Position numbers and translations under genes: made by a program
Notes under the pieces: model-generated
Databases searched by the model: none
Told to the model about the DNA's origin: nothing
What the model saw: the letters and a program-made list of their open reading frames with translations, nothing else
DNA from: Candidatus Poribacteria bacterium
GTDB taxonomy: Bacteria; Poribacteria; WGA-4E; WGA-3G
Direction of reading: 5' to 3'
Length of the DNA stretch: 64,000 nucleotides
NCBI GenBank assembly: GCA_963665235.2
Contig: CAXXLX010000001.1
Location: 2,560,001-2,624,000, forward strand
In this document: positions 17,231 through 45,065 of the stretch, piece after piece
Numbering within the stretch: position 1 is the stretch's first letter
How the letters are laid out: each line of letters starts with the position of its first letter

Positions 17231-17241
17231 TTAAATTTCTC

Positions 17242-18543: not shown

Positions 18544-18805
18544 CTCTCTTCCTCACAAATTTTTCAAAGATAAACTTATTTAAGGTTAGACAGCAGTAAG
18601 GCAAATAAAGTTCGCTTAACTAACGCAATTGTTTTGCCTGTTTTGACGTAAGTCGACGCTATCGGTTTATTATTTTTTTTCGCGCCAGGTTAATGTATAG
18701 ACGTGAAATTTGTTTGACAAACTTAACTAGAATTTGTTATCATAAGTAAGCAGTTTTGAGAATTATTGAAGGATTAGAGAGCAGATTTAGTCATGGAAAC
18801 TTGTT

Positions 18806-19546
18806 ATGGCAACCTTATCCTCAAAAATAGAGTGGACCGAATCCACGTGGAACCCGGTACGAGGCTGCACCCGTGTATCAGAGGGTTGCAGATTTTGTTA
18901 CGCCGAACGAATTGCTGCGAGGTTTTCTGGTAAAGGCATGGCTTACGAAGGATTGGCGGAAAACACGAAAGCCGGGCCCCGATGGACACAGGAAGTTCGC
19001 ACGGTCCCCGCGCTACTTGAGGCCCCATTAAAATGGAAAACCCCCCGCCGAATTTTCGTTAACTCCATGAGCGATCTGTTTCACGAGAAAATTGAAGTAG
19101 ACTATATTCAAAAGGTCTTTTCCGTGATGGAAGCGGCGGATTGGCATCAATTCCAAGTCTTGACGAAGCGGGCAGAGCGATTGGAGAAACTCAGTCCACA
19201 GTTGCCGTGGCCTCCAAACGTCTGGATGGGAGTCAGCGTTGAAGATAGTCGCGTGGTGCATCGGATTGACGCACTCTGTCGGACAGGCGCGCGTATTAAA
19301 TTTCTCTCACTTGAACCGCTTATCGGCCCGCTCCCAGATTTGGTGTTGACAGGTATAGATTGGGTGATTGTAGGAGGCGAGTCCGGTCCTGGGGCGCGCG
19401 CAATGAAAAAGGAGTGGGTTATTGATATCCGCGACCAATGCGCGACAGAAAAAGTTCCGTTTTTCTTTAAGCAGTGGGGCGGCAGATTCAAATCGAAAAC
19501 CGGAAGACTGTTGGATGGCAAACTTTACAATGAAATGCCCGATTAA
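18806..19546 (+). CDS. DUF5131 / phage Gp37-Gp68 family protein
   Basis: IEWTESTWNPVRGCTRVSEGCRFCYAE, FVNSMSDLFH, WVIVGGESG, FFFKQWGG. Confidence 0.9.
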   Translation: MATLSSKIEWTESTWNPVRGCTRVSEGCRFCYAERIAARFSGKGMAYEGLAENTKAGPRWTQEVRTVPALLEAPLKWKTPRRIFVNSMSDLFHEKIEVDYIQKVFSVMEAADWHQFQVLTKRAERLEKLSPQLPWPPNVWMGVSVEDSRVVHRIDALCRTGARIKFLSLEPLIGPLPDLVLTGIDWVIVGGESGPGARAMKKEWVIDIRDQCATEKVPFFFKQWGGRFKSKTGRLLDGKLYNEMPD

Positions 19547-19602
19547 AGTTTTTGCCGCATTTTCCATCAACATCCCATAAAATGCAAAGGGCAATGACGA
19601 TT

Positions 19603-19738
19603 ATGTATAGAAATTATACATGTTCAGGCGGATATGTATAAAAAATCGCAAAAACTATACATATCGAGCAGGATATGTATAAAAACTATACATATTAGCC
19701 GCGATATGTATAAAAAACCGCAAAAATTATACATATAC
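19603..19738. promoter_or_regulatory. Array of alternating ATGTATA/TATACAT inverted half-sites upstream of the Fic gene
   Basis: Four pairs visible directly; regulatory role inferred. Confidence 0.5.
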
Positions 19739-19758
19739 AATTATTAGGACAGTGAAAC

Positions 19759-20859
19759 ATGACACTAAAGAACCAATTCGATCAGAATATACCGTGGAAC
19801 GACATGCCCGAACTTCCACCCACATCGGAAATTGAATCGCGCAGCATACTTAAAGCGTGCATCTCCGCGGTGACTGAGCTGGCAAAGGTAAACGCCTTGG
19901 TCAGAATGTTGCCGAACGGGGAAGTTTTGGTTAACACCTTACCGCTTCAGGAAGCACGTATGAGTTCGGAAATCGAAAATATCGTTACCACAAACGATGA
20001 ACTGTACCGGGCTATGACCTCTGAAAACCTCCTACGGGTTTCACCGAGTGCCAAAGAGGTGCTGCGCTATCGAGAGGCATTATGGATGGGGGTAAATAGG
20101 CTAAATGATCAATCTACTTTGAATAGTGCTCTCTTTGAACAGATCTGTTCCTGTCTTTGTGATGCAAAAATGCCTATTCGTGAAGATGGGGTTGTAATCG
20201 TGAACAATATCACACAGCAGGTCATCTACACGCCGCCTAGGGGATACGAAAATATCGTCAGGTTGTTAACTAACCTTGAGCACTTCATCAATGACAAAGA
20301 TAACGGGTTCCACCCGCTCGTCAAAATGGCGGTCATGCATTATCAATTTGAAGCGATACATCCTTTCACAGATGGCAATGGGCGGACAGGCCGTATTCTC
20401 AATATCCTCTATCTGATACATCAAGGCCTGCTTGACGTACCAATCCTTTACCTCAGCCGTTTCTTTATCCAAAACCGGGTTGACTATTACCGTTGTCTGC
20501 GTGAGGTTACAGAAAACGGAAAATGGGAGCAGTGGATACTTTACGTGTTGGCAGCAGTGGAACAGACATCGAGAGACACCACACACACGATAGAGGTCAT
20601 TAAGACACTTATTGACAATGTAATTTCACAAGCGCAAGGTAAAACGAAAGCGGTTGAACGGGAAGGTTTTGTTAATTTGCTGTTCAGGTGGCCCTATTGC
20701 AAAATCGGCATCGTTGCAAGAGAATTGAAGTGCAGTCGTATTACTGCCACGAAATATCTGAACGAAATGACAGCCCTTGACGTGCTTGAACGCCAGAAGA
20801 TTGGACGAGAATTCTACTACATTAACAAAGGTTTTATGGAGTTGCTCTCAAATATGTGA
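19759..20859 (+). CDS. Fic family protein with Fic_N and C-terminal HTH
   Basis: SSEIEN, canonical HPFTDGNGRTGR. Confidence 0.92.
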   Translation: MTLKNQFDQNIPWNDMPELPPTSEIESRSILKACISAVTELAKVNALVRMLPNGEVLVNTLPLQEARMSSEIENIVTTNDELYRAMTSENLLRVSPSAKEVLRYREALWMGVNRLNDQSTLNSALFEQICSCLCDAKMPIREDGVVIVNNITQQVIYTPPRGYENIVRLLTNLEHFINDKDNGFHPLVKMAVMHYQFEAIHPFTDGNGRTGRILNILYLIHQGLLDVPILYLSRFFIQNRVDYYRCLREVTENGKWEQWILYVLAAVEQTSRDTTHTIEVIKTLIDNVISQAQGKTKAVEREGFVNLLFRWPYCKIGIVARELKCSRITATKYLNEMTALDVLERQKIGREFYYINKGFMELLSNM

Positions 20860-20890
20860 AGCGGAAGTTCTAGGAGCCGAGTATGTTCAC

Positions 20891-22192
20891 TTAATCTGTA
20901 CGTAACGCTTCAATTGGGGAAAGCGTAGAGGCTTTTATTGCAGGATATAAACCGAACGATATACCGATTGCCGCGGAAAACGATACCGAAATTAATACCC
21001 ACCGCATTGAGATAACCGCAGGCCATGCAGGAACGACTTTAGCAATTTTGACAGCGAGCAGTGCCATACCTTCCCCTGCAAGCATGCCCAAACCGACCCC
21101 GATTGCTCCGCCTATACTGCACATCACAATCGCCTCTATTAAAAATTGTAAAAGGATATCCAACCGTTTGGCACCGAGTGCTTTCCGTAGACCAATCTCA
21201 CGGGTGCGCTCTGTGACAGCGACGAGCATCATGTTCATGATGCCGATGCCACCAACGAGTAGCGAAAATCCGGCAATGCTGCCTAGGGCAATCTTTATCA
21301 CCTTGCTAATCTTCTCCAATTGCCCCACACTCTCCCGCATCTCAAAGATTCTGATAAAATCATCTTGGTTTCTGTGGCGTTCCCGTATGACAGCCTTTAC
21401 TTCCTCAATCGCCTTCGGTACATCCTCGACGGTATGTGCGTAAACGACAATATCCTGAATTCGCTTGTTGCCTGTAAAACGTTCCTGTGTCGTTGATATA
21501 GGCATAAAGACGAGGTTATCGAAGCTCCATCCGAATCGGAGGCTTCTGCCTCTAGGCACGAGGGTGCCGACGACGGTGAATCGTTCGGTTGTGCGTCTAC
21601 CGCCTCTTCTATCCCATCGGTCGTAATACCCGCCGCCTCTTGCGATTTTAATTTCTTGTCCTAGGGGGGATTTTTCGCCGAACAGTGCGGTGGCCACTTC
21701 ATCTCCAAGTACACAGACTCTCGCTGCGTCTGTGACATCTTCGTCTGTAATAAACCGTCCCTCTTGTATATCCCAATCCATTGCGGTTTGATATGTTGCA
21801 TCTACCCCGTTATAGCCAGCCCGGGTTTGTGCGCCGCCTATCGCTTCGATTAAGACCCCTTTCCAGTCCGGAATTCGTGGTGTGACTGCGCTAACAGATG
21901 GACATTTCGCTTCAATTGCCAATACGTCTTCGTATTCCATGAACTCATTGCTGCGGATGCGTACCCACCGGTGTCCTACCCGCTTGTACCAGGTGCGGTA
22001 GATAGTGAACTGGTTCGCGCCGCCCAATTTTTGTGCGTCTTGCAGCACAATGACCTTAGCCCCATCACCGATAGCTATCATTGCCAACACCGAGGCAACC
22101 CCGATAATTATACCGAGCATCGTCAGCAGGGAACGCAGTTTGTTCATCCGGATTGCGGATATTGCAACAGCTATTCCTTCAATTATACGCAT
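20891..22192 (-). CDS. MacB-like ABC transporter permease (close paralogue of 17242-18543)
   Basis: Near-identical C-terminal TM region to 17242-18543. Confidence 0.92.
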   Translation of the reverse strand: MRIIEGIAVAISAIRMNKLRSLLTMLGIIIGVASVLAMIAIGDGAKVIVLQDAQKLGGANQFTIYRTWYKRVGHRWVRIRSNEFMEYEDVLAIEAKCPSVSAVTPRIPDWKGVLIEAIGGAQTRAGYNGVDATYQTAMDWDIQEGRFITDEDVTDAARVCVLGDEVATALFGEKSPLGQEIKIARGGGYYDRWDRRGGRRTTERFTVVGTLVPRGRSLRFGWSFDNLVFMPISTTQERFTGNKRIQDIVVYAHTVEDVPKAIEEVKAVIRERHRNQDDFIRIFEMRESVGQLEKISKVIKIALGSIAGFSLLVGGIGIMNMMLVAVTERTREIGLRKALGAKRLDILLQFLIEAIVMCSIGGAIGVGLGMLAGEGMALLAVKIAKVVPAWPAVISMRWVLISVSFSAAIGISFGLYPAIKASTLSPIEALRTD

Positions 22193-26915: not shown

Positions 26916-27480
26916 CGATGTTATCAAATTCATGTTGGTTAGCACACGGTAAGGAAAATGCAACCTGTGCAATTTTCCGAACCATAAAGCAAATGCAGGT
27001 AAGAAAGATGCAGAAAATGCACCACAATTTTAGCATCCCAAAACCGATTTTAGCAGTGCCGTACAGCTACTGTGCCGGCAGTGCGAATCCTTGTCGTGCT
27101 TGCGTTTGTTCAGTGTTAGAAATTATTGTTAATATTGAATTAACAATAATCAAATTACCCCCCCCCGTGTTAACCATAAGTTAACTATTGTTATAAATTT
27201 AACAGTCCCCGCACTTATTGCGGGACTCTATTTGTGCTCGCGCGAGTTTCGTCTTGTACGAAATGTTTCGTCGCGGGCTTTTTTTGTTGCATTGGGTTTT
27301 GCCCAATGCTCGTTATTCTCTGCCGACTGCAAGACCCATGAGACAGATGTTGTATGCTATGTTTATCTGTGCCTATTTCAGATGGGTTTCCAGACGAAAC
27401 AAATGTCGTCAGAAGGCAATTTTTAGTTTAAATACTGTAGTAATATTTTTATTAAGGAGGGACCCAGAGTGGGAAAAAAA

Positions 27481-28380
27481 ATGGAATTATTTTCAGTCAT
27501 GTTCTGGAATGTAGAGAGGTTTGGTATACCTTCAGAAGAACGGTTAGATCAAGTTGCTAATCACATACAAGGCTTAAATCCAGATCTGCTTTGTCTTTGT
27601 GAGGTTCAAGATAAACCTACATTGAGAAGTTTGTTAATGGATAAATTCAGTTGAGTACGACTTTGCTATTACTGAGAGTTACCATTTGCAATGTCGAACT
27701 ACTTGTGCGGATGGAGGCGCTTGGCAAATTTGAGCACGGATCAAATTCTTTTTACCCAACGTCGACAATTTCAGTCAGGCAGCGAAAACCTGAGACCGGG
27801 CGCGCTCTGTAGTGTCAAGCTTAAAGATAAGTTTTTTCACTTTCTTTTCCTGCACACTGACTCCGGCAGGAAACTTCGAGAACTATTATAACCGTCAAAG
27901 CATGTTTAAGAAAATATGCAGGAGCTCAAGAGAGTTCTTGCATGACATCAGTGAAGACGGTGTGAGATTTGTCGTGATGAAGGAGACACTAAACACGATT
28001 GGACAGCAAGAATATAGGTCTGCGAATCCCGCCTTGCCATCTAAGCCAGATATTCAGCGGATGATGAACAAGCGGCATTGGGAGAAGATGCCGAAGCTAA
28101 GGGATGTGTATGCTAATTTCCTAGAACCCATGATAGGACGTGGAGATCCGATCCAGATAATCAGGAGGTCTATGAGTCAACATCTTGACCACGCGCTGGC
28201 GAACCCGTAATATTTCGTTTGCAAGTCCTTTGAAATTCCAGGAAAACTCGGAGCATGATTCCAATTGCCCTAAAACTCGTGTTAATGGTTGGAATGATTT
28301 GGATAAAGGGTTGTGAATAACGATTTTCATTATAACTGTGACAGGCGACCATTGTTCAAAATTCTTGACGGTGACCGTTA
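27481..28380 (+). pseudogene. Endonuclease/exonuclease/phosphatase (EEP) family, multiply frameshifted
   Basis: MFWNVE, PDLLCLCEV, FLHTDSG, LDH and GDHC motifs spread over several frames. Confidence 0.7.
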
Positions 28381-28602: not shown

Positions 28603-29220
28603 ATGAAAAAATGTTTTCATCTCTTAGCAATAGTTATGCTTGTCACCTGCCTTGCAGTTGGCATCACGGGCTGCGACGAGCAGGTGCCAAATCAAATTGA
28701 CAACGTGGTTAATGGAGGCACCGATACACCATCCACTGAACCGGTGCCAGAACCCACTGAACCCGCTGAACCGGAACCCGAGCCCGAACCGGAACCCACT
28801 GAACCGGAACCGATTCAAGGCATGGTCGTCACAGCGGTGCCCGCACAGACAACGTCCCCCGCAGCCGGTCAACAGCTGCAGGTACGTATCGAGATTACCG
28901 GTGCCGCCGATGTCAGCGGTTATGATGTAACACTAATTTTCGACCCGACTGCCCTGCAATATGTTTCAAGCGCAAATGCGGATTATCTACCGGCAGGTGC
29001 ATTCGTAGCACCCGCGCAAGTTACGGAGAACAGTGTTTACCTAAGTGCGGTTTCACTCTCTGGCGCAGTAACCGAAGAAAGCGGCACACTTGCAACCATG
29101 ACGTTTGAGGTGCTGACCGCCAAAGCCTCCACGCTTACGTTGGGTGAAGTTGTCCTCACAGATGCAAATGGGCAAGCGTTAACGTTCACACCTGTAAATG
29201 GGCAGCTCAACGCACCTTAA
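28603..29220 (+). CDS. Lipoprotein with PE-rich linker and cohesin domain
   Basis: Lipobox ITGC, (PE)n linker, GYDVTLIFDPTALQY...GTLATMTFEV cohesin-like pattern. Confidence 0.8.
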   Translation: MKKCFHLLAIVMLVTCLAVGITGCDEQVPNQIDNVVNGGTDTPSTEPVPEPTEPAEPEPEPEPEPTEPEPIQGMVVTAVPAQTTSPAAGQQLQVRIEITGAADVSGYDVTLIFDPTALQYVSSANADYLPAGAFVAPAQVTENSVYLSAVSLSGAVTEESGTLATMTFEVLTAKASTLTLGEVVLTDANGQALTFTPVNGQLNAP

Positions 29221-29229
29221 GTATGGGTG

Positions 29230-30680
29230 TCTTCAGTCCAGTATGGACGCTATATTTATAGAAACCCGCGTGAACACCCTCTTGAACCCCGTAGGGGTGA
29301 TATGTGAACACATCAGTTTGGGCATCACAATATGTCGTTCCTATTTCTTCAGTCCCAGTATTCGGGCAAACGGTTTCCCGCTCCTCAGGGACGCTATGTT
29401 TATAGAAAAGCGTGTGAACATAGTCTTGAATCCCGTAGGGGTGATATGTGAACACATCAGTTTGTGCGTCACAATAGGTCGCTCCTATTTCTTCAGTCCC
29501 AGTATGGACGCTATATTTATAGAAAATCGCGTGAACACCCAGTCTTGAACCCCGTAGGGGTGATATGTGAACACATCAGTTTGGGCGTCACAATATGTCG
29601 TTCCTATTTCTTCAGTCCAGTATGGACGCTATATTTATAGAAAACACCGTGAACACCCTCTTGAACCCCGTAGGGGTGATATGTGAACACATCAGTTTGG
29701 GCATCACAACAGGTCGCTCCTATTTCTTCAGTCCCAGTATTCGGGCAAACGGTTTCCCGCTCCTCAGGGACGCTATATTTATAGAAAACGTGTGAACATA
29801 GTCTTGAACCCCGTAGGGGTGATATGTGAACACATCAGTTTGGGCATCACAACAGGTCGCTCCTATTTCTTCAGTCCAGTATGGACGCATTTATAGAAAA
29901 CATCGTGAACCTCGTCTTGAACCCCGTAGGGGTGATATGTGAACGCATTAGTTTGGGCATCACAATATGTCGTTCCTATTTCTTCAGTATATTTATAGAA
30001 AACATCGTGAACACCGTCTTGAACCCCGTAGGGGTGATATGTCAACGCATTAGTTTGGGCATCACAATATGTCGTTCCTATTTCTTCAGTCCAGTATGGA
30101 CGCTATATTTATAGAAAAGCGCGTGTTTCTTCAGTCCAGTATGGACGCTATATTTATAGAAAATCGTATGAACACCCTCTTGAACCCCGTAGGGGTGATA
30201 TGTCAACGCATTAGTTTGTGCATCACAATATGTCGCTCCTATTTCTTCAGTCCAGTATGGACGCTATATTTATAGAAAATCGCGTGTTTCTTCAGTCCAG
30301 TATGGACGCTATATTTATAGAAAAATCGTATGAACACCGTCTTGAACCCCGTAGGGGTGATATGTCAACGCATTAGTTTGGTTGGGCATCACAATATGTC
30401 GCTCCTCCCGTATGGACGCTATATTTATAGAAAATCGCGTGTTTCTTCAGTCCAGTATGGACGCTATATTTATAGAAAATCGTATGAACACCCTCTTGAA
30501 CCCCGTAGGGGTGATATGTGAACGCATTAGTTTGGGCATCACAATATGTCGCTCCTCCCGTATGGACGCTATATTTATAGAAAAGCGCGTGTTTCTTCAG
30601 TCCAGTATGGACGCTATATTTATAGAAAACATCGTGAACCTCGTCTTGAACCCCGTAGGGGTGATATGTCAACGCATTAG
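29230..30680. repeat. ~1.45-kb tandem array of composite REP-like units (11 x CTTGAAcCCCGTAGGGGTGATATGT plus TTCTTCAGTCCAGTATGGACGCTATATTTATAGAAAA modules)
   Basis: Counted directly; linker segments are homologous to each other rather than unique. Confidence 0.9.
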
Positions 30681-30746
30681 TCTGAAAGTTTATGCTACAC
30701 ATCGGGGTGATAAACCCCACCAACAACTAACGAAGGAGTTTCTTTC

Positions 30747-31559
30747 ATGAAAACCCAATCTTTCAAATCTTTTAGCGGAAAAATTACTTTCGCCTTACTC
30801 ATTCTTGCCTGTTGCTTCGGTTTCACAGCGATAAGTTACGGGCAAGCGATTATCTCTTTACAACCAGCAACGATTGCAGTGCCGCAAGTCGGTAAATCCT
30901 TCACTGTGGAAGTGAACATCGCTGGCGGCAAAGGCATGGCTGGCTATCAGGTAGCTGTAGCATTCGATCCGACAGTGGTGAAGTATATCTCTGCTGCAGA
31001 TGCCGGTTATCTCAATTCAGAAGTTTTCGCTGTGCCGTTACTAGAAGCTGAGCAGACCACCTTTGTCGTTGCTGCACTTGGCGGCACTGCCACAAAAACC
31101 CTCGGCACCCTTGCCACAATGACGTTTGAAGTGCTAAAACCGAACCCCTTTAAAAGTTTTCACCTGACAGAAGTTATCTTAGCAGACGCGGATGCGGAGG
31201 TGATGGGTGTGAGATTTATACAAAACAACGTCAACCGCGCCGAGCTAACAACCCCGATGCCAGCTAACCACACATCGCTTATGCCGAACTATCCGAACCC
31301 GTTCAACCCGGAGACATGGATACCGTATCAGTTGGCTACGCCAGCGGATGTAACGTTGACCATCTTTAGTTCAGATGGGCAGTTAGTTCGAACATTGGCA
31401 TTAGGACATCAACCTGCGGGTGTGTATCAGCATAAGACCCGTGCTGCATATTGGGATGGCAGGAACGACATCGGTGAACGCGTTGCCAGCGGTTTATACT
31501 TCTATACCCTCACCGCGGGCGACTTCGCTGCCACCGGAAAAATGCTAATCCTGAAATAA
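30747..31559 (+). CDS. Secreted cohesin-domain protein with C-terminal FlgD-Ig/T9SS-like sorting domain
   Basis: Signal peptide, GYQVAVAFDPTVVKY...GTLATMTFEV, NYPNPFNPETWIPYQL...WDGRND.GE.VASGLYFY. Confidence 0.82.
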   Translation: MKTQSFKSFSGKITFALLILACCFGFTAISYGQAIISLQPATIAVPQVGKSFTVEVNIAGGKGMAGYQVAVAFDPTVVKYISAADAGYLNSEVFAVPLLEAEQTTFVVAALGGTATKTLGTLATMTFEVLKPNPFKSFHLTEVILADADAEVMGVRFIQNNVNRAELTTPMPANHTSLMPNYPNPFNPETWIPYQLATPADVTLTIFSSDGQLVRTLALGHQPAGVYQHKTRAAYWDGRNDIGERVASGLYFYTLTAGDFAATGKMLILK

Positions 31560-31573
31560 AAGGAGTTATTTTG

Positions 31574-33081
31574 ATGAAAAAACTATTTCAGAAGCAGCTG
31601 CTTTACGCCTGCTTAATAACAGTCCTCTGTTTTGGCATCACGGCACTAAGTTATGGGCAAGCCGTGGTCTCCATAAACCCCGCAGAGGTGGTGTCCCCCG
31701 CCGTGGGACAGCAGATGACGGTTACGATTAAAATAGCCAAAGGCACGCGTGTCGCCGGCTACGACTTAACAATACGGTATGATACAACTGCCCTGCAATA
31801 CGTTGAAATCACGAACAGCACGTATCTTCCGACAGGTGCGTTTGTTGCCCCGGCGGTGGTGTCCAGTGGCCGCATCATATTTGCGGCGACCTCGTTATCG
31901 GGAGCCGTAACTGCCAGTAGTGGCACCTTGGCAACGCTCAAATTCCAAGTGGTTGCGGTGAAAAAATCCACACTCCAACTCACTGATGTTGTCCTCACCG
32001 ACAAGGATGGCAACGCCTTGGCGGTCACGAAACGGAACGCCAACGTTGTTGTGAGACAATTGCTACCGACAGATATCAATAGAGATGGCAGAGTGAACGT
32101 GCAAGACCTCGTCTTAGTTGCGCGCGATCTCGGGAAGACAGGTACTCTCTCGACAGATCTGAACAGTGATAACAGAGTGAACGTGCAGGACCTTGTGTTA
32201 GTCGCACGCGACCTCGGGAAGACAACAAATAGTGGGGGGACCACGCCACCAGATGATGGCGGAACCACCACGCCGCCAGACGACGGCGGAACCACCACGC
32301 CACCGACCACTGACCCGTATGCAGGCATGGCACTAATCCCTGCTGGCGAATTTCGGATGGGAGGCAACGATGCACAGGCCCGGAGCAATGAAAAACCGGT
32401 GCATTCTGTCTATGTAGATGCATTTTACATGGATAAATATGAGGTTACCAATGCCCAATATGCAGCGTTCCTGAATGCGAAAGGCAAACACGCTGAGGGT
32501 GGTATCACCTGGTATCGCATTGGTCAAGATCGTTCTCGTATTGAGCTGGCATCTGGTAAGTATCGTGCGAAAACCGGGTATGAAAATCACCCTGTGACAT
32601 ACGTGAGTTGGTATGGTGCGATGGCTTATGCGGCGTGGAAGGGCAAACGTCTGCCGACAGAAGCGGAGTGGGAAAAAGCTGCACGTGGCGGTTTAGCCGG
32701 TCTAAAATACCCGTGGGGTAACACCATAAATTCCACCAAGGCAAATTACAATAATCATATTAAGGATACCACTGCAGTAGGTAAGTATACTGCAAATGGT
32801 TACGGTTTATTCGATATGGCAGGGAATGTGTGGGAGTGGTGCTTAGACGAGTATAACGGAGGTTTCTATTCGGTTTCGCCAGCTCGGAATCCGTTGTCGG
32901 GTGCAAATAGTGTTGAATGGTTAATAAATAATTATAAAGGTGTTAAAAGTTCCCGCGTTTTGCGTGGTGGCTCCTGGAGCGGTACGGACAGGACGTGCGG
33001 GTCGCCTTTCGCGGCAGCAAGACGCCGCCGTACTCGAACGACTACTTCGGTTTTCGTTGTGCGAGGGCTGTAACCCCTTAA
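31574..33081 (+). CDS. DGR target: signal peptide - cohesin - dockerin - linker - FGE-sulfatase (CLec-fold) domain; 1-nt deletion in VR
   Basis: DINRDGRVNVQDLVLV x2 dockerin, F.MG..., RLPTEAEWEKAARGG, NGYGLFDMAGNVWEW, RVLRGGSW; native GFRCAR end lies in the shifted frame (stop 33081), read ORF stops at 33073. Confidence 0.88.
32947..33069 (+). repeat. DGR variable repeat (VR)
   Basis: Aligns to TR 33530-33653 with 20 substitutions at TR adenines, 1 non-A change, 1 A deletion. Confidence 0.95.
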
Positions 33082-33103: not shown

Positions 33104-33135
33104 CGTCTCCAATCTGCTTTAGCAGATTGGAGACG
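33104..33135. promoter_or_regulatory. Perfect 15-bp inverted repeat after VR (DGR homing hairpin/cruciform)
   Basis: CGTCTCCAATCTGCT-TT-AGCAGATTGGAGACG, ~35 bp after VR. Confidence 0.8.
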
Positions 33136-33191: not shown

Positions 33192-33659
33192 ATGGCAGCA
33201 TCAACAGTTCAAGCGGTTCCAAAACTATACGATGTAATTGTGTGGTTGATGGGGCGCGTTGAAAAATTTCCGCGTTCCCAAAAGTTCACCCTCGGTGACC
33301 GAACTGTCAACCTTGCTCTGGATACACTAGAGTTGCTTATTGAAGCTACCTATACGCGGGACCGCTTGGTTTTGCTACGTAAAGCCAATGTGCAACTGGA
33401 AAAACTGCGTTTTATGATTCGGTTATGCGATTTTTGCGCAAACCATTTTCCGGAAATCATAAAAGATATATTCAAAAAGCGTGTCGCTCTCGATGCCTTT
33501 GCGTCGGGAGTTCACGAGGTTTCAAGCCGAAGTTCCCGCGTTTTGCGTGGTGGCTCCTGGAACAATACAGAACAAAACGTGCGGGTCGCCTTTCGCAACA
33601 ACAATACGCCAACGAACACGAACAACAACAACGGTTTTCGTTGTGCGAAGACACTTTAG
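33192..33659 (+). pseudogene. avd: Avd (accessory variability determinant), C-terminally truncated and read through into TR
   Basis: KFPRSQKFTLGDR...LELLIEATY...ANVQLEKLRFMIRL four-helix-bundle pattern; last helix absent; ORF continues through TR. Confidence 0.85.
33530..33653 (+). ncRNA. DGR template repeat (TR)
   Basis: AAC/AAT-rich copy of VR. Confidence 0.95.
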
Positions 33660-33809
33660 AGGGTCCACCGTGACTACAAGTCACTATAAGGGGTTGCCAG
33701 AGTTGGTATGCCTCCGATGTAGGTGAGTCATATCAAGTGTGCATCAATGAAGAGTCCAAGGTTTGGGACCTGTGTTAGTCTCTTTAGAGATGAGCCGAAG
33801 ATAAAAACT

Positions 33810-33861
33810 GAGGTGTGATGGTAAGTAGGCTTCCTGCCGAATGCTATCACACCTCTTTTTT
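33810..33861 (+). terminator. Intrinsic terminator closing the avd-TR transcript
   Basis: GAGGTGTGAT...ATCACACCTC stem followed by T6. Confidence 0.7.
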
Positions 33862-33969: not shown

Positions 33970-35739
33970 ATGATGAACGCTGTAAAGATTGCCCCTGAGC
34001 TGCTGTTAGCCTTCCAAGACTACGTGGAGACAGCAGGCTACGAGGAGGCAGAATCAACAGATTTACCCTTAGATAATAGAACCTTGAGCCCTCAAGGCAG
34101 TGTGGTCAGGCCGGAAGCACCGCAGGTAAACGTTTTTCTACACTGTGACGAGGCAGCAGCACTTGACCATTTAGAGGAGAAAGGTATTCAAATCAATACC
34201 CGGAAAGGGTGTATCAGAACAGCCCGCTTATCCTTGGAAAATCTGGAACGCCTTTATGAGGAACCCAACCTTATGCATGTTGAGGCATCACACAAGCTGC
34301 ATCCACTGATGGACGTAGCTTTTGCCAGAGTGCAGTTTCCGGAATTTCGGAACAAAACTGATTTGACAGGTAAAGGGGTAATCATTGGTGTTGTTGACAG
34401 CGGCATTGATTCTAACCATCCCGCCTTCCAAGGACGAATTTTGCGGATCTGGGACCAAGAAATTAAACAGAAGTTGACACGTGAAAATTTCTCTCTCTCC
34501 CGGGATACCGATGGGCATGGCACGCATGTCGCCGGCATCGCAGCGGGTAACGATAATCAATACGGTGGGGTTGCTCCCGAAGCGGAATTGGTCATCGTCA
34601 AGAGTACCTTGTGGGATACAGATATCTTAGAAGGTATTCGCTATATCTTTGAATTTGCGGATGAACTCGGCAAACCGGCAGTAGTGAATCTTAGTCTTGG
34701 CGGACACCACGATCCTCACGATGGCAGTGATAGTTTGTCAAGAGAGATTGATAGGTTATCTGGTGAAGGCAAAATTGTTTGTTGTTCGGCTGGCAATGAG
34801 GGAAATTATAATATTCATGCACAAGCGCACCTTGCTCAAAGCGGGGATTCACGCAGCATGCGTTTCTTGGTGCCGGAGACTTCAGGCAGCAACGCTATTC
34901 GGAAGGTTACACTAAATGGGTGGTATTCAGTAAGGGGCCATATTGAGGTAGCTATCCAATCACCGAGTGGAGCTCGGACAGATTATCAAGGTATTCTATC
35001 CGAAAATGCCTTGGTCCCTCACGATTTGCCAGATGCCCGTATCTACACTGTCACGCCTGAAATTGATTCGACAAACCAAGACCGTTCATTCACCATTACA
35101 GTGAACGCTGGCGGCTCTGATGGAGTCGTTACGCCGGGAATATGGAAACTCTGGTTGCATGGTAGAGATGTTAGCAATACTCAAGTGGACGTGTGGGTAT
35201 TAGATGGTAAAAAGCTTCCACAGGTGGTTTTCACCGGGAGAAGTGTTTCTGACTCAATGAAGATTGGATCTCCAGGGGCAGCCCATCGGGCGGTTCCTGT
35301 CGCTTCCTACACAACTAAGGCCGAATGGCAGGATATTGATGGGAGGACATGGACGGTAGGATTGTCTCCAAACGATATTTCTGATTTCAGTAGTGAGGGG
35401 CCTTTACGTAACGGAGTCCAAAAACCGGATGTGACCGCACCGGGGGCGTATATCGCCAGTTGCCTGTCATCTGATGTGGACCAGCCGCCACGCTGGAGGC
35501 AAATAAACTCTCATTATACCATGATGGCGGGCACAAGTATGTCTGCCCCCTTTATCAGCGGTATCATCGCTCTCTTGCTCCAACACGATTCTACATTTTC
35601 ACCCGAACGCATCAAGGCCTTTTTACAAGCGAGCAGTTCCATCCTTGGAAACCGACCTGGCCGTTTCCATCCAAAATGGGGGTATGGACTGATAGATGCC
35701 GATGCACTCGCGGATGCTCTTTTCTCTCTAACTTCGTAA
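33970..35739 (+). CDS. S8 subtilase with N-terminal prodomain and inserted beta domain (Csp-like layout), no obvious signal peptide
   Basis: Catalytic triad motifs GVVDSG, DGHGTHVAG, GTSMSAP. Confidence 0.92.
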   Translation: MMNAVKIAPELLLAFQDYVETAGYEEAESTDLPLDNRTLSPQGSVVRPEAPQVNVFLHCDEAAALDHLEEKGIQINTRKGCIRTARLSLENLERLYEEPNLMHVEASHKLHPLMDVAFARVQFPEFRNKTDLTGKGVIIGVVDSGIDSNHPAFQGRILRIWDQEIKQKLTRENFSLSRDTDGHGTHVAGIAAGNDNQYGGVAPEAELVIVKSTLWDTDILEGIRYIFEFADELGKPAVVNLSLGGHHDPHDGSDSLSREIDRLSGEGKIVCCSAGNEGNYNIHAQAHLAQSGDSRSMRFLVPETSGSNAIRKVTLNGWYSVRGHIEVAIQSPSGARTDYQGILSENALVPHDLPDARIYTVTPEIDSTNQDRSFTITVNAGGSDGVVTPGIWKLWLHGRDVSNTQVDVWVLDGKKLPQVVFTGRSVSDSMKIGSPGAAHRAVPVASYTTKAEWQDIDGRTWTVGLSPNDISDFSSEGPLRNGVQKPDVTAPGAYIASCLSSDVDQPPRWRQINSHYTMMAGTSMSAPFISGIIALLLQHDSTFSPERIKAFLQASSSILGNRPGRFHPKWGYGLIDADALADALFSLTS

Positions 35740-35828
35740 CCGAAAAAAGTACCAATTCTCTTGAGAATATGTTATCATATAGAGTGTTTATTAAATAGCA
35801 TTTTCACTTCTGTAAAGGAGATATTTTT

Positions 35829-36104
35829 ATGAACTATCAGAAACTTGGTATTGCACTTGCTATGGCCGTTACTGACGCTGAAACATTAGATGAAGAGGGA
35901 GGCGCATTCAACGTTTTTATCCACACGACTCGTGCCCTTGGTATTAACGAGGTTACCTACCTTGAAGGATTGGGGGTTTCGTGTGAGCCTGCGGATCGAC
36001 AGGTATTTACAGCAACACTCTCGGCTGAGGCGGTTGATGAGTTGTCTAAACAGCCCTGGGTGAGTTCCCTTGAACTTTCGCAGAAACTGCAGTTGCACAG
36101 ATAA
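35829..36104 (+). CDS. Small protein resembling the subtilase prodomain (putative inhibitor/chaperone)
   Basis: NVFIH...LEGLGV...TATLS.E.VDELSKQP.V..LELSQKL vs NVFLH...LEEKGI...TARLS.E.LERLYEEP.L..VEASHKL; AAGGAG RBS. Confidence 0.75.
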   Translation: MNYQKLGIALAMAVTDAETLDEEGGAFNVFIHTTRALGINEVTYLEGLGVSCEPADRQVFTATLSAEAVDELSKQPWVSSLELSQKLQLHR

Positions 36105-40585: not shown

Positions 40586-42300
40586 CTAATCGTCCCTTTG
40601 CGCCGCGGAGGACGATTGCTCAAGATGGGCTTGATAGAGTCGATTCTTGAAATCCGCATTGATTTCAGATTTTGACAATTTATTGTAAAGTTCCAGCTTG
40701 TTATTGACAAAATCCAATAAAATATCATCAACTACTTGTTCAAACTTATACCGTTTGTTGGTTTCCGCTGAAACGCTGCTTGGAGCTGTTCTGGTTCATT
40801 CACGAAGTCAAGCACTAGCGTATCGGTTTTACCAGTAGCGACACGGTTCAGACGGCTCAAGGTTTGGACACATTGTAACCCATCCAATCGCTTATCAACG
40901 TACATCGTCTGCAGCAGCGGCTCATCGAAACCTGTCTGGAACTTGTTCGCGACAATCAGAATCCGATATTCAGGACTCTTGAAACTGTCCTCGACGGAAG
41001 TGCTCGGCGGCAACAGATTCATCCCGCTTTCCGTGTATTCCTGCCCGTTATCGGTGTCTTGCACTGTGTTGCTGAACGCTACCAAACACCCGTAGGGAAG
41101 TCCCATCTCCTTCATCTGCCGATCAAACTCCTGCTTGTATCTGACGCAGTGCAGTCGGGAGGGTGTAACCAACATCGCTCGTCCCTTCCCTTCAATCGTT
41201 TTTGCCGTGTGTTCGGTGAAGTGTTCAAGGATAATCCGGGTTTTGGTCTCAATACTATGGGGTTGCAGGTCAACGTAATTGGTCAGTGCTCGAAGCGTTC
41301 GCGCCTTCTCGTACTCTCTATCCTCCTGTGCACTTTTAACCAATTGGAAGTATCTCTTAAAGGTGGTATAGTTCTGCAGCACGTCCAGTGTGAAACCTTC
41401 GCTGATACTTTGGCGCATGGAATAGACATGAAACGGGACAAATTTTCCTTCTGCGTCCTTCTGTCCAAAGAGTTCTAAGGTCTTGTTTTTCGGGGTGCCG
41501 CTGAAACCGAAATAGGAGATATGCTCTTGCATTCTGCGTTGTTCCATCTGTTCAAGGATTTTAGCGTCTATATCCGATACTTCATCGGCATCATGTTCCG
41601 TTTCCCCCTCTTCTATCCCCTTTGAGAGTGAAGCCCTGAGATTTCTCTCCGACTCCCCGCTCTGTGAGGAGTGCGCTTCGTCAATAATCACGGCGAAGGT
41701 CTTGCTTTTGAGTTTGCCTATCTCCTCGGCAATCACGCTGAACTTCTGAATCGTTGAGATGATGATGTCTTTGCCGGATTCGAGGAAACCTCTGAGTTGC
41801 GCTGAGGTCTTATCAACGGCATGGACTACCCCCTCGACCTGTGCTACCTGCTTGATTGTGTTCTGCAGCTGCTTGTCAAGGACGCGCCGGTCTGTTACGA
41901 CAATAATGGAGTCAAAGATGCGATTGGTATCGCTCTCCGACCGATACAGATGCGTGAGTAGGTGCGCCAACCACGCGATGGAGTTCGACTTCCCACTCCC
42001 TGTGGTGTGTTGGATGAGATATTTATGTCCAACCCCCTCTTTCTCGATAGCCGCTTGCAATTGACGAATCACATCCAGCTGATGATACCGTGGAAAAATA
42101 AGGACGCGGCGTTTCTCATCTGTCACAATTTTACTTCACGATTCTTTCCATTCAACAAAGGTATTGAAAACCCTCCAAACCCGCATGGGCACAAGACCGC
42201 CTACCTTTGGGAAGACATCCTGCAGCCCGATAATCTGATGACGTTAATCAACAACTTTATCTACGAGCAGGAAACCACAGAAAAGGTTTACAATCTGACA
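40586..42300 (-). pseudogene. hsdR: Type I restriction subunit R, truncated, internally deleted, with an inverted fragment
   Basis: PRYHQL, HTTGSGKS, DEAH, FQTGFD, QTLSRLNR; C-terminus in another frame; upstream PFNKG...YLWEDIL segment on the + strand. Confidence 0.85.
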
Positions 42301-42304
42301 AGTA

Positions 42305-42419
42305 CAGGACTTACGCAGCGCGTTGATAAAGTCCATAGATAATAGGATTTAGAGAGAGATCTAGCGGGCGAGGGGACCTCGCCCCTACGAGGATATCGCC
42401 TAAATTTGCGTAAACCCTG
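42305..42419. mobile_element. CAGGACTTACGCA-type MITE at the hsdR breakpoint
   Basis: TIRs CAGGACTTACGCA / TGCGTAAACCCTG, internal REP-like palindrome. Confidence 0.7.
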
Positions 42420-42427
42420 GCAAACAA

Positions 42428-42649
42428 TTAATTTTGGGGGTTGGGTGTTTCTGGTTTAGGTGCTTCTGGTTTGGGTGTTTCTGGTGTAACAACTGGTCTA
42501 TCGTCAGGCTTAGTCTCTGGTTGAACTGGCTTAGGTTCAATAGGAGTTACAGGCCTAACTTTAGCGGGTGGTTTGGGACCTGTCCAAGACTCCACATGTT
42601 TTGGCTTTTTTGGCTTAGCAGACCGATTTTGACTATTTTTGCGTGCCAT
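42428..42649 (-). CDS. Small Pro/Lys-rich hypothetical protein
   Basis: GGAGG RBS, PETPKP repeats. Confidence 0.5.
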   Translation of the reverse strand: MARKNSQNRSAKPKKPKHVESWTGPKPPAKVRPVTPIEPKPVQPETKPDDRPVVTPETPKPEAPKPETPNPQN

Positions 42650-42650
42650 T

Positions 42651-43218
42651 TTATTCACCTCCTTTTACCTCTAAAATACCAAATATCATTAATAGTGCAA
42701 TTGCCAATATCCCTACAATAAATAAAATTATAGAAGTGACAATTAGAAATGTACCTATTTTATTTGCTGTACTCCTCTTAGTGGCTGCTTCCTCTATATT
42801 ATACCATTTCTAATTGAAAATGTCTCTTTCTTGTAGCATAAACTTCCAGTTTGTGCCGTTCTCCGTTTCATTTCTAACAACTGGTAATGGTAGAATAATT
42901 AATAAAAATGGTATTATATAGGTAATATTGTTCGTTAAATTCCCTCTGTTTATGTAAAGCCCTTTGGATAAACAAATAGGAAATTACACCCAGGATAATG
43001 GAAAAAACAAATGGCGCATAACTAATTAGCATGATCCATGTTCTATGATTAATGTCCCAATTGATATACGCAGTCAATAGTATCAATATAACGCCAGAAA
43101 AATATCTCATAGACTTATTGAGTTCCACATCGTTACTCATCAGGCTATCAAATATAGTTTTTTCTTCAGCGAGATATTGTGCGTACCTTTCTTTTTGCAA
43201 TTCTTCTTCATTTGACAT
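42651..43218 (-). pseudogene. Membrane protein interrupted by TA-MITE
   Basis: Removing 42802-42914 plus one TA restores ...QYYLYNIEEAATKRS...GILEVKGGE*. Confidence 0.75.
42802..42914. mobile_element. TA-targeting MITE (single REP unit)
   Basis: Inverted homologue of 12861-13169; TA at 42800-01 and 42915-16. Confidence 0.85.
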
Positions 43219-43627
43219 AATATACACCGATTTCTGTTGATTACATCAACATTAACAGTATAATCAGTATTGGCAAAGTCCTGAAACTACCCCCTTAAAT
43301 CATACTACATTCCAGAAACTTTGTCATAAAATCCACTGAGCCTCCGGCAGTCACAATTTTGCGAATACGGTCGGGTTACCGAAAAACTCGACAGCAAACG
43401 ATCTTAGCGTCCCTAAAACCGATTACTTGCCAAGCAGAAAATTGTCGGCACGCTCACAGGGAGAAATTGTTCAACCCTGCCTCTTTTCTAACCGTAGAGG
43501 CAGGATTGGCAAAGTTTCCAAAGCTACGTCTTAATTATACCACATTCCAGAAACTTTATCAAATTAAAATTAACTGAATATTTGGAAAAGAACTTGACTT
43601 ATCTTGGGTTAAATGTTATAATATTAT

Positions 43628-44101
43628 CAAGTCTTCCGCTACAAAACCCCCGTGCTTTAGCTGGGGGATGTAGTAGCGGCGCATGAGCTAAAATTTTAAT
43701 TTGACTTTTGCATTAAAATGTGGTATAATATATATATCATCAGTGGTTCGGATTACCACCTTCAACGCCACCAATGTTGAAGTTCCGAACCTCAACCTAT
43801 GGTAGGGTTGTGTGCTGATGTTCTGGCGATACCCAGTCAATATCCACATTTTTGTGCAATGCTTTCGGTATCCAAAAGACGGGTCATGCTGCATTGGATA
43901 CCAAAGCACTGATTCACAAGCATAAAGAAGGTGCGAAGCACGAGGGCAGGGCATTGTCCTTTGAGTTAGGGGCAGTAAGACTTGGAACAGCCCAAGCATC
44001 TCCGTTGACGTTCACACGTCTGAAAACCACAATCCAATAGCTAACGCGTAGCGGAACTTTTTAAAAGAATCTCCCTTGCTTTAGCTGGGAGAGTATGTCA
44101 A
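43628..44101 (+). mobile_element. ORF-less IS200/IS605-type element with internal promoter and structured RNA (copy B)
   Basis: Preceded by TTAT; TTGACT-17-TATAAT at 43701-43729; right end GAATCTCCCTTGCTTTAGCTGGGAGAGTATGTCAA. Confidence 0.75.
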
Positions 44102-44153
44102 TGTGCAGGACTGAACCCTCCCTCGGTGGGGGATGTAGGCCCTGCTTTTTTTT
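44102..44153 (+). ncRNA. Candidate small hairpin RNA/terminator convergent on the DUF3800 gene
   Basis: GCAGG...CCTGC stem then T8; orphan promoter at 43594-43622 on the other side of the inserted element. Confidence 0.4.
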
Positions 44154-44167
44154 ATGCTATTTTTTAT

Positions 44168-44815: not shown

Positions 44816-44843
44816 CCTGTCTCCTATGTAAAATACATATCTA

Positions 44844-45014
44844 ACGCGGGCTTGATAATAAATGTCCGTTTGTGCTAGCCTCTATAAACATATCGTCCTT
44901 GAGGAGCGGGAAACCGTTTGCCCGAATACTGGGACTAAGAGGCGGTGGGGAGACGGCTGCTTCTATAAACATATCGTCCCTACGGGACTAAAGAAACTTT
45001 TTTCAAACTCACGT
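44844..45014. mobile_element. ACGTGAG-type MITE with 6-bp TSD (TATCTA)
   Basis: TATCTA at 44838-43 and 45015-20. Confidence 0.8.
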
Positions 45015-45065
45015 TATCTAACACAATTATATTTCTATCACCACGTGTAACGCGTCGACTGCCAG

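Follow-up and report, generated by a model that had tools for sequence, protein, structure and literature searches.

A conserved poribacterial gene trio that may display a DGR-diversified protein through cohesin-dockerin docking

How is a hypervariable protein held on the surface of a bacterial cell? To our knowledge, the holding and presentation of cellular DGR variable proteins are known in few cases only, mostly lipoproteins. The question is raised anew by a 64,000-nt stretch of DNA (the window) from Poribacteria, which are uncultured sponge symbionts. Here, three co-oriented genes, g1, g2 and g3, each encode a cohesin detected with Pfam, and g3 ends in the VR of a DGR (Table 1). Each gene is preceded by an AGGAG-type ribosome-binding site, and the stop codon of g2 lies 14 nt from the ATG of g3. 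These genes probably represent one instance of a three-gene module, conserved in Poribacteria, that displays a hypervariable ligand-binding protein, with docking as the presumed means.

Table 1. Features of the cohesin-dockerin cluster and its surroundings (positions in the window)
Feature	Positions	Strand	Size	Description
EEP-family fragment	27427-27651			degraded adjoining gene
g1	28603..29220	+	205 aa	lipoprotein-type anchor: signal peptide, Pro/Glu/Thr linker, C-terminal cohesin
g1 Cys24	28672-28674			lipobox-like motif
g1 cohesin	28843-29205			residues 81-201
Tandem repeat array	29230..30690	+	~1.47 kb	g1-g2 interval
g2	30747..31559	+	270 aa	minimal surface anchor: signal peptide, cohesin, T9SS type A C-terminal sorting domain
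g2 cohesin	30876-31151			residues 44-135
g2 sorting domain	31290-31550			residues 182-268
g3 (DGR target)	31574..33081	+		ORF start 31571/31574; assembled ORF end 33073; canonical-frame end 33081
g3 cohesin	31691-32032
g3 dockerin	32069-32215
g3 linker	32216-32320			T/P/D/G
g3 FGE-like domain	from 32321			FGE-like/C-type-lectin fold
VR	32947..33064	+	118 nt	3' end of g3
Lost base in VR	between 32985 and 32990
Hairpin	33104..33135	+		perfect 14-15 bp, ~40 nt 3' of VR
avd fragment	33192..33431	+		first ~80 codons of DGR accessory protein Avd
TR	33530..33648	+	119 nt	35 A, AAC-type codons
TR downstream sequence	33649..33861	+		ends in terminator-like hairpin and T-run
Conserved TR flank	33695-33757
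Terminator-like hairpin and T-run	33804-33861
Sulfatase gene	62219-63622

The preliminary description had read g3 as a cohesin, a dockerin, a linker and an FGE/C-type-lectin-like domain carrying the VR, and each of these parts was found in its expected place. The g3 cohesin (PF00963) was detected with an E of 8.1e-13 (49.2 bits against a cut-off of 24.1), the dockerin (Dockerin_1, PF00404) with an E of 2.4e-6 (28.1 bits against 22.9) and the tip (FGE-sulfatase, PF03781) with an E of 8.8e-62. A spacer of only ~5-12 residues separates the cohesin from the dockerin. With a score above the cut-off and two near-identical, EF-hand-like Ca-binding loop repeats, the dockerin is predicted to be of type I, and all 83 members of the g3 family have a pair of D-x-[NTD]-x-[DN]-x6-D loops. 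Two HMM libraries agree on the cohesin and dockerin assignments, and so does a family profile built from 36 g3 members and searched against PDB sequences. Residues 43-156 of this profile matched solved cohesins, best that of Clostridium perfringens NagJ (2jh2, E 6.4e-5) and also that of the adaptor scaffoldin ScaB (3l8q), residues 164-220 matched solved dockerins (2y3n_B, E 8.3e-8, and ~14 others), and the profile also matched the DGR variable protein TvpA (2y3c, E 1.7e-19). The g3 protein has a signal peptide and lacks an anchor of its own. No route across the outer membrane is known for it.

The last ~35 codons of g3 have been rewritten by a DGR through adenine-specific mutagenesis copied from the TR, which lies 583 nt downstream of the VR. 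The two repeats differ at 19 positions (17 A-to-N substitutions, one deleted A and one T-to-G), 18 of which fall on TR adenines, which bears out the earlier reading of g3 as a DGR target; 18 or more of the 19 would do so by chance with a probability of 7.8e-11. Non-A positions are identical at 83 of 84. The same pattern is visible among 35 relatives, in which the VR codons matching the AAC-type codons of the TR exceed 3 bits of entropy and the VR as a whole averages 1.79 bits, versus 0.75-0.79 for the cohesin, the dockerin and the FGE body. The C-terminus G[FIL]R[CF] plus 2-8 residues is kept in 75 of 83 family members. The hairpin following the VR has a predicted fold of -18.5 kcal/mol (z -5.3, equalled by 0 of 200 shuffles) and occupies what we take to be the position of the hairpin/cruciform recognition element of DGR targets. 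Thus g3 has the layout of a DGR target, with a VR at the C-terminal end of a C-type-lectin/FGE fold and then a hairpin, although the VR frame is broken here.

The DGR cassette of this copy is locally incomplete. The VR is one base short relative to the TR, which shifts the frame of the last ~27 codons of g3; the canonical GFRCARAVTP tail is read in a different frame, up to the 33081 given as the end in the preliminary description. The avd gene is partial: Pfam bAvd was matched at model positions 6-74 of 107 (37.8 bits, under the cut-off of 40) and NCBIfam DivGenRetAVD at 4-74 of 104 (63.9 bits, under the cut-off of 80), relatives align to query residues 1 to ~80 only, and the ORF continues past the avd part into unrelated sequence and across the TR, ending at 33659. 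A full 115-aa Avd is found in a comparison locus, L033. No RVT_1 domain was detected by Pfam among 42 window ORFs that were 120 aa or longer, a YxDD scan of all six frames of the window gave three matches, all in non-RT proteins, and a DGR-type RT was not found beside the TR within 30 kb on either side. In a relative (P0343), the C-terminus of an RT (RVT_1, E 3.2e-6) lies just upstream of an 88%-identical TR; nothing in the window matched the RT part of P0343, and a segment after the TR is conserved with the flank of the P0343 TR (95% identity over 21 aa). The long terminator-like hairpin further downstream has a z of -3.0. For diversification, this copy would depend on an RT from another part of the genome.

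Since the g3 VR is out of frame, avd partial and the RT missing from the window, this copy may be inactive. It might even be a decaying relic, that is, a pseudogenised duplicate with a true frameshift, a truncated avd and a lost RT, from which no functional variable protein is made. Besides the deletion in the VR, the end of avd homology near codon 80 and the missing RT, the degraded state of the adjoining genes is consistent with this reading: an EEP-family gene is a fragment, and the neighbouring HsdR, 464 aa long, covers no more than positions 264-691 of a model that has 1029. Another copy probably exists, since a 96%-identical g1 paralogue sits on a contig of the same nucleotide size. However, the single difference among the 84 non-A positions leaves little time since the last templated copying, and the remainder of g3 is intact, with 83-88% identity to in-frame relatives. 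The short avd form is also carried by the closest relatives, a 99%-identical avd-TR ORF is present elsewhere, and one further full-length family member (P0067) likewise has a VR frameshift. Where a region is hypervariable and heterogeneous in the population, a single lost base is the kind of error that consensus sequences typically contain. Real decay, an indel made by the DGR and misassembly of a heterogeneous stretch are all candidate causes of the frameshift. A relic is a serious possibility, but we lean towards a copy that is not one.

Could the tip instead be an enzyme? In catalytic FGE, the formylglycine-generating enzyme, a C-x4-C before an R-x-A-x-R segment is the active-site Cys pair. 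In a relative of g3 (P0003), the Cys pair is absent where the FGEs 6s07, 6muj and 2q17 have their C-x4-C, and this segment is the VR; the g3 tip was therefore classed as an FGE fold and not as the enzyme. This bears on the idea that the cluster is a cellulosome-like machine for the breakdown of sponge glycans, with a true sulfatase-maturing enzyme on a scaffold. The high FGE-sulfatase score, the sulfatase gene within the window and a cohesin scaffold anchored by a C-terminal domain and with enzyme payloads, proposed for Cloacimonadota in PMC8542988, would suit such a machine. It is nevertheless highly improbable, as the segment aligned to the FGE C-x4-C is a hypervariable VR lacking Cys, the VR/TR pair marks the domain as a DGR target, and neither Pfam nor NCBIfam detected in g1-g3 any catalytic domain other than the FGE fold, or any GH or CBM domain.

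The two upstream genes had been described as a lipoprotein with a linker and a cohesin, and as a cohesin with an FlgD/T9SS-like C-terminal domain; both descriptions proved accurate. By motif match, g1 is a predicted bacterial lipoprotein: its signal peptide ends in a lipobox-like I-T-G-C, such a motif occurs in all 47 g1 relatives, and Cys24 does not vary in any of 36 aligned relatives. Its linker is rich in Pro, Glu and Thr, and its cohesin was detected with an E of 4.5e-10 (PF00963, 40.3 bits against 24.1). The g2 cohesin was detected with an E of 2.9e-8 (34.5 bits against the same cut-off). The C-terminal domain of g2 was matched by Pfam FlgD_ig (E 4.3e-11) and, above the curated cut-off, by the T9SS type A sorting domain TIGR04183 of NCBIfam (28.9 bits against 23), while Pfam Por_Secre_tail (PF18962) alone stayed under its cut-off (19.1 against 27). 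This C-terminal sorting domain makes g2 a putative T9SS type A cargo. The same two domains are present in 68 g2 relatives of 257-277 aa.

The architecture is a conserved one, as judged from protein clusters. Cohesin, dockerin and FGE domains occur together in 83 clusters (at 90% identity), and all source-named entries with this set are Candidatus Poribacteria. The preliminary description knew of no characterised example of the combination; indeed no paper describing it was found in a literature search, but the combination is not peculiar to the window, being a family across Poribacteria. A genome scan for relatives yielded almost only FGE genes of other phyla, with no close relatives among the matches. 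As had been expected, the three genes appear to stay linked in relatives, judging from contigs of identical nucleotide size and not from their DNA: relatives of g2 and g3 have 24 exact sizes in common (including 3387, 6162 and 9356 nt), those of g1 and g3 have 13, those of g1 and g2 have 13 (including 3255 and 5247 nt), and seven sizes are common to relatives of all three genes. Some of these coinciding sizes are as small as 3.3 kb.

A cohesin with a dockerin immediately after it is also a general poribacterial didomain, found on WD40, LRR, Ig and Big_1 payloads, among others. A T9SS sorting domain was found in none of 86 FGE-type entries versus at least 20 of 34 non-FGE cohesin-dockerin entries, with domain orders checked on six of these proteins. 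In a quick tree, the g1, g2 and g3 cohesins formed three separate groups (SH-aLRT 86, 87 and 92, none reaching the 95% mark of the tree tool), with the g1 type sister to the g3 type.

How, then, might the three proteins work together? The cluster is real, and its mechanism is what we infer. The g3 dockerin would plug Ca2+-dependently into the cohesin of g2 and/or g1 and so keep the variable binder attached to the envelope. This would leave the g3 cohesin free to receive a dockerin, either from a second g3 molecule or from different cohesin-dockerin proteins (WD40, LRR, Ig), and the resulting chains would be terminated by the cohesin-only anchors g1 and g2. Such self-chaining agrees with the way the didomain recurs with many kinds of payload, whereas the cohesin of g1 and of g2 has no dockerin beside it.

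The partner of the g3 dockerin could also be encoded outside the cluster, as proteins with cohesins and dockerins are numerous in Poribacteria. In its general form, this possibility makes the didomain a generic oligomerisation module: the g3 dockerin would bind cohesins of unrelated proteins from other parts of the genome, g1 and g2 would take other dockerins, and the genes would be neighbours by descent, through module duplication, without being partners. Such a network would account for the variety of payloads on the same didomain, and the 54% identity of the sister g1 and g3 cohesins is consistent with duplication. Distances of the dockerin, the g3 cohesin and the g1 cohesin are correlated to the same degree (r 0.85-0.96), a result that common descent would produce by itself, and they single out no partner cohesin. 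We consider it unlikely all the same, as the linkage extends to identities as low as ~55% and to 3-6-kb contigs, and g2, with a cohesin and a sorting domain alone, sits 14 nt upstream of the sole family without a sorting domain.

Docking within the cluster may have a particular rationale. A DGR requires the VR and homing signals at the extreme 3' end of the gene, and T9SS export and surface attachment require the sorting domain at the extreme C-terminus. Since both claim the same end, the sorting domain would have been moved onto the minimal partner g2, and g3 would ride via its dockerin, by T9SS piggyback or surface capture; g1 would provide a further anchor, and the unoccupied g3 cohesin would let variable binders and eukaryote-like repeat proteins be strung into daisy chains. 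This resolution of a C-terminus conflict is put forward tentatively and is on balance doubtful.

Among DGR systems, g3 most resembles Treponema denticola TvpA, in which the VR is likewise at the extreme C-terminus of an FGE-like domain and the differences are adenine-specific. As with variable proteins of the TvpA type, an Avd-type gene and the TR follow the target. However, g3 has an N-terminal cohesin-dockerin instead of a lipoprotein anchor or other domains, no RT adjoins, and cohesin-only anchor genes lie upstream.

Among cohesin-dockerin systems, the adaptor scaffoldins Acetivibrio cellulolyticus ScaB and Ruminococcus flavefaciens ScaH also combine a cohesin and a dockerin in one polypeptide, and they dock onto anchoring scaffoldins, which are separate cell-bound proteins with cohesins only. 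Unlike these, the cluster belongs to a Gram-negative host, uses a lipobox and a T9SS sorting domain and not SLH or sortase, has a single cohesin per protein and a short spacer before the g3 dockerin, and carries as payload a hypervariable binder and not an enzyme, with no glycoside hydrolases. A cellulosome, with a multi-cohesin scaffoldin and dockerin-bearing glycoside hydrolases, is thus not what g1-g3 encode, although the cluster may work like one. Assembly of non-cellulases by cohesin and dockerin is shared with the C. perfringens NagJ/NagH pair (2ozn/2jh2) and the Archaeoglobus fulgidus pair, but phylum and payloads differ, and those pairs are not known to have a link to a retroelement. 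The review PMC12484212 mentions the A. fulgidus pair and describes dual-binding type I dockerins as having two duplicated Ca-loop segments, as in g3. A parallel to g2 is a cohesin protein of 'Ca. Stygibacter' (Cloacimonadota) with a conserved T9SS-type C-terminal domain, proposed, in PMC8542988, to hold dockerin proteins on a Gram-negative surface. According to the same text, that scaffold has 3,755 aa, tandem cohesins and CBMs, and enzyme payloads, whereas g2 is a 270-aa single-cohesin adaptor adjoining a DGR target.

The arrangement of g3 beside two cohesin-only anchors suggests a display mode for hypervariable cell-surface proteins that would be new. If this is true, DGR and cohesin-dockerin systems, both well studied and not known to have been connected, become linked, cellulosome-type modules gain a role in recognition instead of degradation, and a sponge symbiont has a natural, modular, hypervariable surface display. 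A testable model would follow for how Poribacteria expose variable binders, together with eukaryote-like repeat proteins, to the host, to phage or to particles. A natural cohesin-dockerin scaffold for a mutable binding domain would also interest protein engineers. Since each module is small and self-contained, the binding claims are directly testable with recombinant domains.

The repeat array that separates g1 from g2 by 1.5 kb consists of two alternating modules, a 34-nt motif in eight copies and a 24-nt motif in 11, all on the + strand. No further copies of these motifs occur elsewhere in the 64-kb window, and an Rfam search of the array gave nothing at gathering score (best E no better than 0.45). 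The array contains many small hairpins, each followed by a T-rich tail, and because it intervenes, g1 may be transcribed separately from g2 and g3.

The three co-oriented genes g1 (lipoprotein-type anchor), g2 (sorting-domain anchor) and g3 (target of a diversity-generating retroelement, DGR) constitute a module for which both the architecture and the existence of a family are well supported, and the mechanism is unproven. An AGGAG-type ribosome-binding site precedes each gene, and the g3 ATG lies 14 nt after the g2 stop codon. The preliminary description of g1 as a lipoprotein with a Pro/Glu linker and a cohesin agrees with the end of its signal peptide and a Pfam match to PF00963 (E 4.5e-10). 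For g2, a cohesin joined to an FlgD/T9SS-like C-terminal domain had been described, and both parts were recovered: a cohesin (E 2.9e-8) and a beta-sandwich matching FlgD_ig (E 4.3e-11) in Pfam, the T9SS type A sorting domain TIGR04183 of NCBIfam scoring 28.9 bits against a cut-off of 23. The g3 product contains a cohesin (E 8.1e-13), a type I dockerin (E 2.4e-6) consisting of two near-identical 23-residue calcium-loop repeats, and an FGE-sulfatase domain (E 8.8e-62). A family profile of 36 members, run against solved structures, independently matched solved dockerins over residues 164-220 (best 2y3n_B, E 8.3e-8), the cohesins NagJ (2jh2, E 6.4e-5) and ScaB (3l8q) over residues 43-156, and the Treponema DGR variable protein TvpA (2y3c, E 1.7e-19). 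Thus the proposed order of cohesin, dockerin, linker and FGE/C-type-lectin domain in g3 holds, and the three domain kinds PF00963, PF00404 and PF03781 are all present, with a cohesin in each of the three proteins.

Features of the module and its neighbourhood (window positions)
Feature	Position (nt)	Strand	Description
Large eukaryote-like repeat proteins	9829-11985, 51073-53844, 54517-56238		one TPR-FRG-SUKH, two WD40
Transporter cluster	13983-22192		three paralogous MacB-type permease genes and an HlyD-type gene, split by DUF5131 and Fic genes
Region upstream of g1	26400-28600		gene-poor, fragments only
Endonuclease/exonuclease/phosphatase-family fragment	27427-27651		first ~45 positions, E 1.7e-4
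g1	28603-29220	+	205 aa; signal peptide ending I-T-G-C, Pro/Glu/Thr-rich linker, C-terminal cohesin
Tandem repeat array	29230-30690	+	1.47 kb, between g1 and g2; two alternating modules
g2	30747-31559	+	270 aa; signal peptide, cohesin, C-terminal beta-sandwich
Signal-peptide segments of g2 and g3	30747-30850, 31574-31660		shared end motif
g3	31574 (ATG)	+	signal peptide, cohesin, type I dockerin, Thr/Pro/Asp/Gly linker, FGE-sulfatase-like domain
Variable region (VR)	32947-33064	+	last 118 nt of g3, repeated downstream
avd fragment ORF	33192-33659	+	Avd match over model positions ~4-74 only
Template repeat (TR)	33530-33648	+	119 nt, 35 A, runs of Asn codons
S8 peptidase and next ORF	33970-36104		subtilisin family, 589 aa; then 91-aa ORF
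Type I restriction-modification remnant	40732-46895	-	HsdM, DUF3800, HsdR
DUF3800 gene	44168-44815		between HsdM and HsdR
HsdM	45168-46895		intact

The end of g3 was described as carrying the VR in its FGE/C-type-lectin domain. Since the downstream copy of this stretch is adenine-rich and has runs of Asn codons, it was identified as the template. The two copies differ at 19 positions, comprising 17 A-to-N substitutions, one deleted A and one T-to-G change, and 83 of the 84 non-A positions are identical. With 18 of the 19 differences at TR adenines (probability of at least 18 by chance, 7.8e-11), the assignment of the VR to g3 stands. Diversification was also observed across 35 relatives: entropy exceeds 3 bits at codons aligned with the A-rich codons of the TR, and mean entropy is 1.79 bits in the VR versus 0.75-0.79 in the cohesin, the dockerin and the FGE body (the FGE-sulfatase-like, C-type-lectin-fold part). 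A perfect 14-15-bp hairpin lies ~40 nt 3' of the VR. The cysteines of the C-x4-C motif of FGE enzymes are catalytic. At the matching stretch the relative P0003 has no Cys, and this stretch is the VR, which argues that the C-terminal domain of g3 is a binder of the C-type-lectin/FGE fold, and not an enzyme.

The deleted VR base, located between 32985 and 32990, shifts the reading frame of g3. As assembled, g3 stops at 33073 with an Arg/Thr-rich tail that no aligned relative shares, since all 35 end in ...G-[FL]-R-[CF]-x-x-x-V...; the canonical tail ...GFRCARAVTP is present in another frame, with its stop at 33081. Among 83 family members, 75 have canonical C-terminal ends; of the other eight, five are truncated proteins, one shows a variant motif, and the window copy and P0067 carry a frameshift in the VR. 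The second case indicates that VR indels recur, their source being either the DGR itself or the assembly of heterogeneous populations. In P0067, the tail follows the same wrong frame as does part of the TR region of the window.

The accessory gene avd is represented by a fragment that scores below both curated cut-offs (Pfam and NCBIfam). Its closest relatives, 71-89% identical, match residues 1 to ~80 only and then diverge from each other; a 155-aa copy of the ORF, 99% identical, is present elsewhere, and a full-length Avd in L033 has 115 aa and a different C-terminal helix. No reverse transcriptase was detected, either with Pfam in the 42 window ORFs that reach 120 aa or by scanning all six frames for YxDD. 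The cassette in the window is a target, an avd fragment and a TR only. A database relative, P0343, consists of a reverse transcriptase C-terminus (RVT_1, E 3.2e-6) joined to a TR 88% identical to that of the window, demonstrating that the lineage has reverse transcriptase-linked TRs. The flank downstream of this TR is 95% identical to window positions 33695-33757, and its reverse transcriptase part has no trace within the window. A g1 paralogue, 96% identical, was found on a contig of equal size (4,364,704 nt), so that a second copy of the module is probably present in the same genome.

The cohesin-dockerin part of g3, used as a query, retrieved 131 matches. Of the best 120, 86 contain an FGE domain and 83 all three domains, at identities from 92% to ~46%, and every named match among those 120 is Candidatus Poribacteria. 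Full-length relatives with the same architecture number 47 for g1 and 68 for g2. Linkage in relatives, a check suggested by the preliminary description, was judged by exact size match of the longest contig of each cluster. Relatives of g2 and g3 have 24 contig sizes in common (short ones 3387, 6162 and 9356 nt), those of g1 and g3 13 (8812 and 10868 nt), those of g1 and g2 13 (3255 and 5247 nt), and those of all three genes seven (17166 and 28509 nt). Because chance coincidences were roughly estimated at well below one, the linkage is taken as conserved, indirectly, from these equal contig sizes. A genome profile scan with the g3 family alignment reached at least 79 loci, FGE-sulfatase genes of many phyla. 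Seven of the loci listed are from Poribacteria and carry ordinary FGE genes (six of 273-368 aa, one of 1,006 aa), an eighth (L022) encodes a poribacterial-type WD40-cohesin-dockerin protein, and no close g3 relative was found among these eight.

A quick tree built from 122 cohesins resolved the g1, g2 and g3 types as three separate groups, with SH-aLRT values of 86, 87 and 92, none at the 95% mark of the tree tool. The g1 and g3 types are sister groups, their cohesins in the window being 54% identical; the g2 type lies apart from them (~35%). Divergence of the FGE body was found to be uncorrelated with that of the cohesin-dockerin part in the g3 family (Mantel r 0.02-0.27), and the bodies of the 83 members fall into at least two subtypes (54 of 'KGKH' type, 17 'QWQK'-like and 12 other). 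Cohesin and dockerin track each other (r 0.85-0.97), and together these sequence comparisons suggest that recombination swaps the binding domain between N-terminal modules.

The same didomain, a cohesin followed directly by a dockerin, is fused to other payloads in the 34 matches among the best 120 of 131 that lack an FGE domain. Six were inspected for domain order: WD40-cohesin-dockerin-sorting domain (L022), cohesin-dockerin-Big_1-sorting domain (P0007), cohesin-dockerin-sorting domain (P0099), LRR-cohesin-dockerin (P0106), and cohesin-dockerin with unrecognised N-terminal parts (P0092 and P0114). A T9SS-type sorting domain occurs in at least 20 of these 34 proteins versus none of the 86 listed FGE-type proteins; the DGR target is thus a member of the didomain superfamily without an anchor of its own. 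It lies directly 3' of g2, whose product is just a cohesin mounted on a sorting domain.

Dockerin-cohesin binding is Ca2+-dependent, duplicated symmetric type I dockerins can bind in two orientations, and proteins that combine both modules serve as adaptors linking payloads to anchoring scaffoldins, according to a review (PMC12484212). By analogy, the likeliest docking site of the g3 dockerin is the cohesin of g2, of g1 or of both, which would hold the variable binder at the envelope. The cohesin of g3 itself would be left free for another dockerin, giving chains ended by the cohesin-only anchors. On the boldest reading, anchor and binder would be split because the DGR and T9SS both need the C-terminus of a protein. 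Co-divergence, measured as Mantel r between domain distance matrices, was used to search for the dockerin partner. The dockerin gave 0.93-0.96 with the g1 cohesin (n = 5-10 pairs), 0.85-0.97 with the g3 cohesin, 0.32-0.43 with the g2 cohesin (n = 15-23) and 0.40-0.46 with the g2 sorting domain. This evidence was rejected since the g3 and g1 cohesins give an equally high value with each other (0.90-0.95), making the signal indistinguishable from shared descent. The signal peptides of g2 and g3 both retain the end C-F-G-x-T-A-x-S-Y-G-Q-A. In loose form this motif occurs in 75/83 g3 and 31/68 g2 relatives, 0/47 g1 relatives and 1/34 other cohesin-dockerin proteins, and its Cys is invariant in 36 aligned g3 proteins; a special sorting role or mere shared descent could explain it.

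A cellulosome or sulfatase-maturation machine was considered and rejected, as was a phage or defence context of g1-g3, for which PADLOC was empty and PHROGs gave only FGE-like and Avd matches. The parts are individually known: DGR targets of C-type-lectin fold, cohesin-dockerin pairs, T9SS sorting domains and lipoprotein anchors. For Cloacimonadota, a cohesin scaffold anchored through a sorting domain has been inferred (PMC8542988). The largest DGR survey notes that remote targets are undetectable by its approach (Roux et al., 2021; PMC8144416), and in ten of its supplement files there is no mention of cohesin, dockerin, PF00963, PF00404 or Poribacteria. No account joining a DGR to a cohesin or dockerin was found in the searchable open literature (subscription journals lying outside the search), nor one that reports these modules in Poribacteria (bioRxiv supplements likewise outside). 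By title and abstract, none of the listed publications on Poribacteria and diversity-generating elements concerns this system.

The array between g1 and g2 consists of a ~45-nt module (eight copies of a 34-nt core, at most one mismatch) alternating with a ~75-nt module whose 24-nt core occurs in 11 copies, each unit forming small hairpins and one long imperfect hairpin. A CRISPR was rejected because the would-be spacers that separate the 34-nt repeats also recur. There are no further copies in the window and no Rfam family match. Upstream of g1, the nuclease-family fragment is followed by short ORFs in other frames, and the region looks like a decayed gene. On the other side, the S8 peptidase gene, whose product lacks an obvious signal peptide, begins 110 nt past a terminator-like hairpin downstream of the TR, and the ORF next to it has no family match.

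The window holds no further cohesin match, and neither cohesin nor dockerin was found on its TPR-FRG-SUKH and WD40 proteins; many poribacterial WD40 proteins in the database differ in this from the proteins here. In the restriction-modification remnant, no HsdS was recognised, and HsdR (464 aa) matches positions 264-691 of a 1029-position model. Within the transporter cluster, the DUF5131 gene (PADLOC candidates PDC-M41B/M30B, E ~1e-108) and the SoFic-type Fic gene (E 1.9e-107) may form a small defence islet.
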